Below are positions 6,326 to 6,625 of a DNA stretch of 29,058 bases, piece after piece. Within the stretch, counting starts at the first letter, position 1, and every line of letters begins with the position of its first letter. The translations under genes and the position numbers were made by a program. The notes under the pieces were generated by a model. It saw only the letters and a program-made list of their open reading frames with translations, had not been told where the DNA came from and searched no databases. Source of the DNA: Escherichia coli (GTDB lineage Bacteria > Pseudomonadota > Gammaproteobacteria > Enterobacterales > Enterobacteriaceae); the NCBI RefSeq assembly GCF_003334315.1, contig NZ_QOWR01000058.1; one strand, 5' to 3'.

Positions 6326-6326
6326 A

Positions 6327-6448
6327 CCGTAGGCCTGATAAGACGCGCAAGCGTCGCATCAGGCAACCAGTGCCGGATGCGGCGTGAACGCCTTATCCGG
6401 CCTACAAGTCATTACCCGTAGGCCTGATAAGCGCAGCGCATCAGGCGT
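6327..6448. repeat. BIME (cluster of about three REP palindromic units) in the sdhB-sucA spacer
   Basis: Imperfect palindromes of REP type (gcctgataagacgcg...cgtcgcatcaggc; gccggatgcggcgtgaacgccttatccggcctac) in alternating orientation. Read by eye. Confidence 0.7.
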
Positions 6449-6625
6449 AACAAAGAAATGCAGGAAATCTTTAAAAACTGCCCCTGACACTAAGACAGTT
6501 TTTAAAGGTTCCTTCGCGAGCCACTACATAGACAAGAGCTCGCAAGTGAACCCCGGCACGCACATCACTGTGCGTGGTAGTATCCACGGCGAAGTAAGCA
6601 TAAAAAAGATGCTTAAGGGATCACG

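Follow-up and report, generated by a model that had tools for sequence, protein, structure and literature searches.

What is a short, perfect hairpin doing just upstream of sucA, and does it act together with the repeat cluster that precedes it? The sdhB-sucA spacer of Escherichia coli raises this question, and we analysed it in a window of 29,058 nt (the whole stretch of DNA; assembly GCF_003334315.1, contig NZ_QOWR01000058.1) that corresponds to the gltA-sdhCDAB-sucABCD region. In the window sdhB ends at 6325 and the ATG of sucA is at 6626; a single nucleotide polymorphism, at 6528, was found against MG1655 in the 701 bases compared around the spacer. An earlier note on this DNA had pointed to a bacterial interspersed mosaic element (BIME) of three repetitive extragenic palindromes (REPs) and to the hairpin, and had suggested that together they mark a processing or stability boundary that lets the levels of sdhCDAB and sucABCD differ.

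The spacer as a processing or stability boundary is already published and is not new. Read-through from sdh into suc yields an unstable transcript, which is processed within the spacer. Three RNase III sites in the sdhB-sucA region are attributed to Cunningham & Guest (1998) in PMC9731577 and PMC5371410, and in the literature the sites are placed upstream of the target site of the small RNA (sRNA) GlnZ. An internal terminator and a secondary promoter have been reported in the same region (PMC4161252, PMC6393394). In the rnc mutant (rnc14) SucA is lowered and SucB is not, and a review lists sucA among the mRNAs under positive RNase III regulation, the mechanism of which has not been elucidated (PMC9032294). 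For Salmonella, Chao et al. (2017, Table S4) list a 386-nt sucA 5' untranslated region (UTR) with 10 RNase E sites and a CsrA peak from crosslinking and immunoprecipitation (CLIP). The earlier proposal is thus upheld at the level of the spacer, by the published RNase III sites, terminator and promoter and by an RNase III peak in the third REP; the joint action of BIME and hairpin is not, because the BIME is dispensable and the hairpin is found family-wide. We tentatively propose, with a probability of roughly 0.45, that the BIME and the hairpin, here called P3, are two unrelated elements and that P3 is a passive clamp keeping the GlnZ site open.

The P3 hairpin in the sucA leader

For comparison we used 80 sucA loci from other Enterobacteriaceae species, in 74 of which the last ~130 nt before the ATG align well. 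The alignment of these 74 leaders contained four helices (P1 to P4) and several invariant single-stranded blocks in a leader of ~165 nt. The features of this leader in the window are the following.

6463-6480 (GGAAAUCUUUAAAAACUG) with 6496-6512 (CAGUUUUUAAAGGUUCC), plus strand: P1, a long A/U-rich helix.
6507-6511 with 6548-6552, plus strand: outer stem of P2, GGUUC:GAACC, 100% paired.
6516-6521 with 6538-6543, plus strand: inner stem of P2, GCGAGC:GCUCGC, with a GC-to-AU double change in 13 sequences.
6557-6564 with 6569-6576, plus strand: P3, CACGCACA-ucac-UGUGCGUG (in DNA, 3' arm TGTGCGTG and loop tcac), a perfect 8-bp stem 49 nt before the ATG.
6578-6581, plus strand: linker UAGU, conserved.
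6583-6592, plus strand: GlnZ target UCCACGGCGA, complementary to the published seed UUGCCGUGGAAA.
6595-6600 with 6610-6615, plus strand: P4, UAAGCA-loop-UGCUUA, directly before the Shine-Dalgarno (SD) sequence, with a pair probability of 0.92-0.96.
6616-6621 and 6626-6628, plus strand: SD sequence AGGGAU and sucA start codon, invariant in all 74 leaders.

The perfect 8-bp stem with a 4-nt loop that the earlier note had read at 6557 to 6576, about 50 nt before sucA, was found exactly there. A perfect stem of at least 8 bp with a loop of 3-8 nt arose in only 0.9% of 2000 dinucleotide shuffles of 6449-6625. Across the 74 leaders six of the eight P3 pairs showed compensatory double changes and 91.8% of the cells were paired, the closing pair being CG in 36 sequences, UA in 8, GC in 7, GU in 7 and AU in 4. 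When the 3' partners of the four-helix structure were slid by 1-3 columns, pairing was only 19-46%, and the covariation score of this structure was reached by none of 500 shuffles. Among the aligned cells 92 are G-U or U-G; read from the other strand, or as duplex DNA, these would become A-C mismatches, and the structure is therefore that of an RNA of the plus strand, the sense strand of sucA, and not of a DNA operator. Nearly all distinct P3 variants (57 of 59) fold, with 5-11 bp (median 8) and loops of 3-8 nt of unrelated sequence, the remaining two being artefacts in which the extraction pattern had clipped the segment; z was below -2 in 55 of the 59, and the loop is hypervariable. On this comparative evidence P3 is a true plus-strand RNA hairpin that is kept by compensation and conserved family-wide; it is much older than the BIME and has no relation to it.

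That P3 would be a chance palindrome, or a DNA operator for a dimeric regulator, has an almost negligible probability. The DNA does hold a perfect 8+8 palindrome, Nac has been reported at the suc promoter, and IHF is said to act on that promoter as well. Against this stand the complementarity that is kept while the sequence varies, the G-U cells, which would mismatch in duplex DNA, and the rarity of such a stem among the shuffles; the covariation pattern effectively refutes this reading.

A reading of the hairpin itself as a processing site was not supported. A terminator scan found no intrinsic terminator in 6200-6760, the P3 stem being followed by GUAGUAUCC, without a U-tract. A promoter or terminator at the hairpin was considered and rejected, as the scans gave none. 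The P3 stem, 8 bp long in E. coli and of 5-11 bp among the 57 intact variants, lies far below the ~20 bp, about two helical turns, that RNase III requires, and thus is not an RNase III substrate. The RNase III sites of the literature are moreover placed upstream of the GlnZ site.

Perfect 8-bp hairpins also occur elsewhere in the window, with 9 hits at six places (including 6557) as compared to 2.3 +/- 1.7 in shuffles. The other sites are 1053-1076, which resembles the gltA terminator on the minus strand; 18680-18703, a degenerate REP; 22359-22379; 22635-22658, which is terminator-like with a T-run; and 27662-27680, inside an open reading frame (ORF).

The GlnZ site and the possible roles of P3

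GlnZ, with the seed UUGCCGUGGAAA, represses sucA by pairing in the leader, an interaction confirmed with compensatory mutations in both E. coli and Salmonella (PMC9731577). In E. coli this repression requires RNase III (Walling et al. preprint). In the spacer UCCACGGC at 6583 is the only exact 8-nt complement of the seed. The site begins 6 nt past the last P3 pair, so that it adjoins P3 and lies outside the hairpin, and its core ACGG.GAA is invariant or nearly so in the 74 leaders. With GlnZ limited to its first 30 nt, seed included, a GlnZ-sucA duplex was predicted at 6579-6592, directly after P3; an RNAduplex run with full-length GlnZ was set aside as meaningless because it ignores intramolecular structure. 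The described system (Miyakoshi et al. 2022, eLife; Walling et al. 2022) has its validated seed complement directly 3' of P3, both being conserved across Enterobacteriaceae and moving together. In the text searched, which did not cover figures, these publications describe the seed pairing and not the flanking hairpin or P1-P4, and P3 is outside the seed duplex.

How closely P3 and the site are tied is indicated by insertions. In three Citrobacter leaders (L003, L050, L062) 75-130 nt are inserted between the GlnZ site and P4 while P2, P3 and the site stay contiguous, which reproduces the arrangement published for S. Typhimurium, with its validated target C at -166 (PMC9731577). Only two places took up insertions, the P1 apical loop (often ~141 nt) and the gap between the GlnZ site and P4 (75-130 nt); among the leaders compared none lay inside the block of P2, P3 and GlnZ site. 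These three behave as a unit. Insertions are carried by L003 (at about 1140-1280 and 1390-1460), L050 and L062, and also by L006, L009, L012, L019 and others, and from the ERIC primer sequences we take them to resemble ERIC (enterobacterial repetitive intergenic consensus) elements. A switch of the P3 3' arm (CGUGG) to the GlnZ site (CCACG) was considered and rejected, as changes of G6576 are compensated at C6557 and not in the site.

We infer the clamp function from thermodynamic folding models only. P3 would lock its own arms and separate P2 from the target, so that the 10-12 nt sRNA site would stay single-stranded; it would set the 5' edge of the sRNA-mRNA duplex, and would itself be neither a cleavage site nor a terminator. 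In every transcript variant modelled the GlnZ site was mostly unpaired (0.63-0.72). The predicted energy for opening the site, as a mean over 72 distinct leaders, was 2.55 kcal/mol for the native sequence and 4.43 with P3 deleted; the deletion raised it in 64 of the 72 leaders and never lowered it by more than 0.5. Complementing the 5' arm gave a mean of 3.82, complementing the 3' arm 4.71, and swapping both arms, which restores the stem, 3.40. For E. coli the corresponding values were 2.44 (native), 5.51 (P3 deleted), 7.71 (5' arm), 5.22 (3' arm) and 2.47 (stem restored). P3 is read as a clamp because the predicted opening energy rises without it.

Several points weigh against the clamp. The double mutant that restores the stem restores accessibility only partly (species mean +0.85 kcal/mol), and the clamp effect itself is a nearest-neighbour prediction. 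The sequence conservation of the lower stem (ACG/CGU) and of the linker UAGU is left unexplained. Two Erwinia-like leaders, L065 and L068, have no P3 and yet contain a GlnZ-seed complement, CUACGGCAA, ~60-80 nt before the ATG. In Salmonella, Hfq-CLIP gave no peak in the sucA 5' UTR (Chao et al. 2017, Table S4).

Other roles can be weighed against the clamp. It is a possible but doubtful reading that P3, together with P2, acts as a 5'-proximal protective hairpin which, after the spacer has been cut, shields sucABCD from 5'-end-dependent RNase E. Stem-loops at the 5' end, such as that of ompA, stabilise mRNAs, and the motif of RNase E is RN|WUU. Near to this motif is the linker behind P3, which reads GUAG-UUU or GUAG-UUA in most species; the unstable, processed read-through transcript and the 10 RNase E sites in the Salmonella 5' UTR (Chao et al. 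2017, Table S4) would also fit, and P3 resembles the ompA-type stabiliser in being a stable leader hairpin upstream of an A/U-containing single-stranded segment. However, P3 is internal, ~95-230 nt from any known or likely 5' end, and no mapped 5' end coincides with 6557 or lies shortly before it; the RNase III peak falls in the third REP, 120 nt farther upstream, and P1 and P2 upstream would be the 5'-most structures. We consider it distinctly unlikely that P3 lengthens the GlnZ-sucA duplex, its 8-9 bp and the 10-13 bp of the sRNA helix adding up to the ~20 bp for RNase III, although the need of GlnZ repression for RNase III would be explained in this way. Such an extension agrees with the finding that GlnZ has lost its lowering effect on SucA-SPA in delta-rnc while RyhB retains it (Walling et al. 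preprint), and with the predicted duplex directly after P3, which always stands beside the site. The two helices are separated by 2-6 unpaired nt, which makes continuous stacking uncertain, no GlnZ-dependent cleavage in sucA has been mapped, and the lower SucA in rnc mutants could make the lost repression indirect.

Two further readings move the function away from P3. In a translational switch triggered by processing, formation of P1 and of the outer P2 stem would exclude each other over GGUUCC, with P3 a mere passenger in the closed loop: with P1 formed, GUGAACCC (6546-6553) would pair with the SD region GGGAUCAC (6617-6624), and removal of the P1 5' arm, by RNase III or by the use of an internal promoter, would free the SD. 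The folding of the E. coli leader gave, with the P1 5' arm, probabilities of 0.93 for P1, 0.00 for outer P2 and 0.95 for the anti-SD helix, and left the SD 0.34 unpaired; once the arm was removed, the values were 0.97 for outer P2 and 0.02 for anti-SD, and the SD was 0.61-0.73 unpaired. RNAalifold also drew the anti-SD helix, and the switch would suit the fall of SucA and not SucB in rnc14 and the unelucidated positive regulation of sucA by RNase III. A positive RNase III effect, and long helices (here the REP duplexes and P1) upstream of the ribosome-binding site, are likewise shared with leaders whose processing by RNase III increases expression (adhE, phage lambda, T7; PMC9032294), from which sucA differs in that P3 is too short as a substrate and the mechanism is not established. 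We nevertheless hold the switch to be improbable: the SD accessibility gain exceeded 0.15 in only 19 of 77 species and was reversed in Buttiauxella and Cedecea, the anti-SD helix is invariant on both sides, without covariation, and is broken in L067 and L081, in which the 5' side differs though outer P2 is kept, and the mapped RNase III peak lies in the third REP, upstream of P1. Very unlikely, finally, is that P1-P4 form a ligand- or protein-binding regulatory RNA, an analogue of the sucA riboswitch candidate or a site for CsrA or an enzyme, of which P3 would be one arm. Invariant junctions and covarying stems are described for the Burkholderiales sucA motif (PMC1950547), a CsrA-CLIP peak lies in the Salmonella sucA 5' UTR, and an invariant 19-nt block at 6496-6514 is only partly explained. 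With this motif (RF01070) and the orphan sucA and sucC motifs the enterobacterial leader shares a structured sucA 5' leader with strictly conserved nucleotides and covarying stems, a narrow taxonomic range and a structure that reaches the SD; it differs in that it gave no covariance-model match, has another fold, tolerates large insertions and has an sRNA target inside. No Rfam model was matched, the tolerance of 75-688 nt of extra sequence at the two insertion points, the P1 loop and the gap from the GlnZ site to P4, is hard to fit to a compact aptamer, the P3 loop is hypervariable, and GlnZ pairing, with the double role of 6496-6514 in P1 and P2, accounts for much of the junction conservation.

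The BIME after sdhB

The BIME that had been noted at about 6327 to 6448 is present as described. It is extragenic, between the sdhB stop and the sucA start and directly after the former, and its three REPs alternate in direction (inverted, forward, inverted), separated by linkers of 7 and 12 nt.

6329-6364, plus strand: REP1, GTAGGCCTGATAAGACGCGCAAGCGTCGCATCAGGC; long Z-type, inverted.
6372-6405, plus strand: REP2, GCCGGATGCGGCGTGAACGCCTTATCCGGCCTAC; Y-type (GCCGGATGCGGCG...CCGGCCTAC), forward.
6418-6446, plus strand: REP3, GTAGGCCTGATAAGCGCAGCGCATCAGGC; short Z-type, inverted, with the RNase III peak at 6435 in its apical loop.

We take REP1 to be of subtype Z2 and REP3 of subtype Z1. The imperfect palindromes of all three match the REP consensus GCC[G/T]GATG...CCTAC, and the REP-derived Rfam family naRNA4 matched 6332-6402 with 88.4 bits (gathering score 59.5). 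In 5426 E. coli genomes a 561-nt query matched a median of at least 39 places per genome, nearly all of them with its REP portion. The peak was placed by coordinate conversion: Gordon et al. aligned reads to NC_000913.3 and list an rnc-dependent coverage peak at 758515, and window position x corresponds to NC_000913.3 position x + 752080.

The spacer of E. coli is 200 nt long without a BIME, 300 nt with three REPs, as here, and ~360 nt with four REPs. In 1764 of the 5426 complete E. coli genomes the junction has no BIME, and a GC-rich hairpin, GCCGGGGAAATCCCCCGGC, directly follows the sdhB stop; a similar GC hairpin occupies the position of the BIME in most of the spacers inspected from other genera. 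The BIME is a recent, dispensable and strain-variable insertion, and in K-12-type strains it stands where an older hairpin was. The GC hairpin of spacers without a BIME, such as that of E. coli E89 (L082, 337-360), has no clear U-run. Spacers of the arizonae type are 202 nt long.

As RNA, REP1 and REP2 are predicted to form an imperfect duplex of ~30 bp; inverted REPs would thus give imperfect ~30 bp duplexes in the region of the mapped RNase III-dependent read-through processing. REPs classically act as a 3' barrier for the upstream message, and by this behaviour the BIME would also protect the upstream sdhCDAB message. Clusters of this kind occur in other operon spacers, such as malE-malF and hisJ-hisQ, and the sdhB-sucA BIME is like them in REP consensus, alternating orientation, extragenic position in a polycistron, presence or absence from strain to strain, and function as a boundary, of stability or of processing, by which the levels of upstream and downstream genes are uncoupled. 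Nothing essential differs; here the BIME stands where about a third of E. coli genomes, and most spacers inspected from other genera, have a GC hairpin, and it coincides with the RNase III peak. A BIME with a processing boundary is textbook material.

Two side observations concern the BIME. When the whole spacer is folded to minimum energy, the region of REP3 (6407-6460) pairs with the first sucA codons (6626-6660), and the AUG is 0.14 unpaired as compared to 0.58 without the BIME, which may be an artefact of folding a long sequence. An ORF of 86 codons with a GTG start runs from REP2 into sucA (6384-6644), and the spacer carries an annotated hypothetical protein in one RefSeq record, NZ_CP151643.1. 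As the ORF is composed of REP and leader sequence, it is very likely spurious.

The sucA leader and its meaning

P1 is the best RNase III candidate outside the BIME. Its 5' arm was present in all 77 spacers, with a loop of 9-24 nt, or of 46-688 nt where it carries insertions, and each of the 39 distinct arm pairs has at most one mismatch in its 15-bp core. The sequence of both arms is conserved, and compensatory changes occurred in only 3-4 lineages; because of this low covariation P1 is supported mainly by the conservation of the arms and the tolerance for loop insertions. For P4 no covariation evidence was obtained from the 74 leaders, since five of its six pairs never vary. The 19-nt block at 6496-6514, CAGUUUUUAAAGGUUCCUU, is invariant or nearly so in these leaders and doubles as the P1 3' arm and the outer P2 5' arm, which may explain its conservation only in part. 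In addition to lacking P3, the Erwinia-like L065 and L068 kept P1, GGUUCC, P4 and the SD, and their seed complement lies inside a small hairpin, ACGG-CAAG-CCGU.

Within E. coli the leader occurs as two haplotypes, one in about 4300 genomes and the other in about 1140. The rarer form, which matches E. albertii (L002), has a compensated P2 (GCGAGC:GCUCGC changed to GCGGAC:GUCCGC) and an unchanged P3 stem with a loop of 10 nt as compared to 4 (window 6512-6577 against L083 561-636). A search against Rfam 15, including the sucA motif RF01070, gave no family match to the leader at E-values up to 10, only chance-level matches of microRNA hairpins on P1. In the literature text searched, which did not cover figures, the GlnZ site is mentioned, and neither the hairpin nor the four-helix layout is described. 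An upstream ORF of nine codons at 6459-6488 (ATG CAG GAA ATC TTT AAA AAC TGC CCC TGA), overlapping the P1 5' arm, was rejected, as the start is lost (ATT in L002) or the ATG is followed at once by TAG (L007). GGA motifs are found in the P1 5' arm (GCAGGAAAUC, 6463-6465) and in the SD region (6618-6620).

The ~165-nt leader (P1-P4, 6463-6625) might as a whole be an undescribed, family-wide regulatory RNA in which mutually exclusive helices (P1, outer P2 and anti-SD) couple processing by RNase III or RNase E to GlnZ pairing and to ribosome access, while P3 holds the sRNA site open. We consider this wider reading unlikely; if true, such a leader would provide the mechanism so far lacking behind the positive RNase III effect on SucA. 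The 2-oxoglutarate dehydrogenase stands at the branch between the tricarboxylic acid cycle and nitrogen assimilation, and SucA is controlled apart from its operon neighbours by the GlnZ sRNA and RNase III. The validated sRNA site sits in a deeply conserved helix architecture that is supported by covariation, and this old leader can now be separated from the recent, strain-variable BIME. The separation matters when findings from K-12 are applied to the BIME-free third of E. coli strains.

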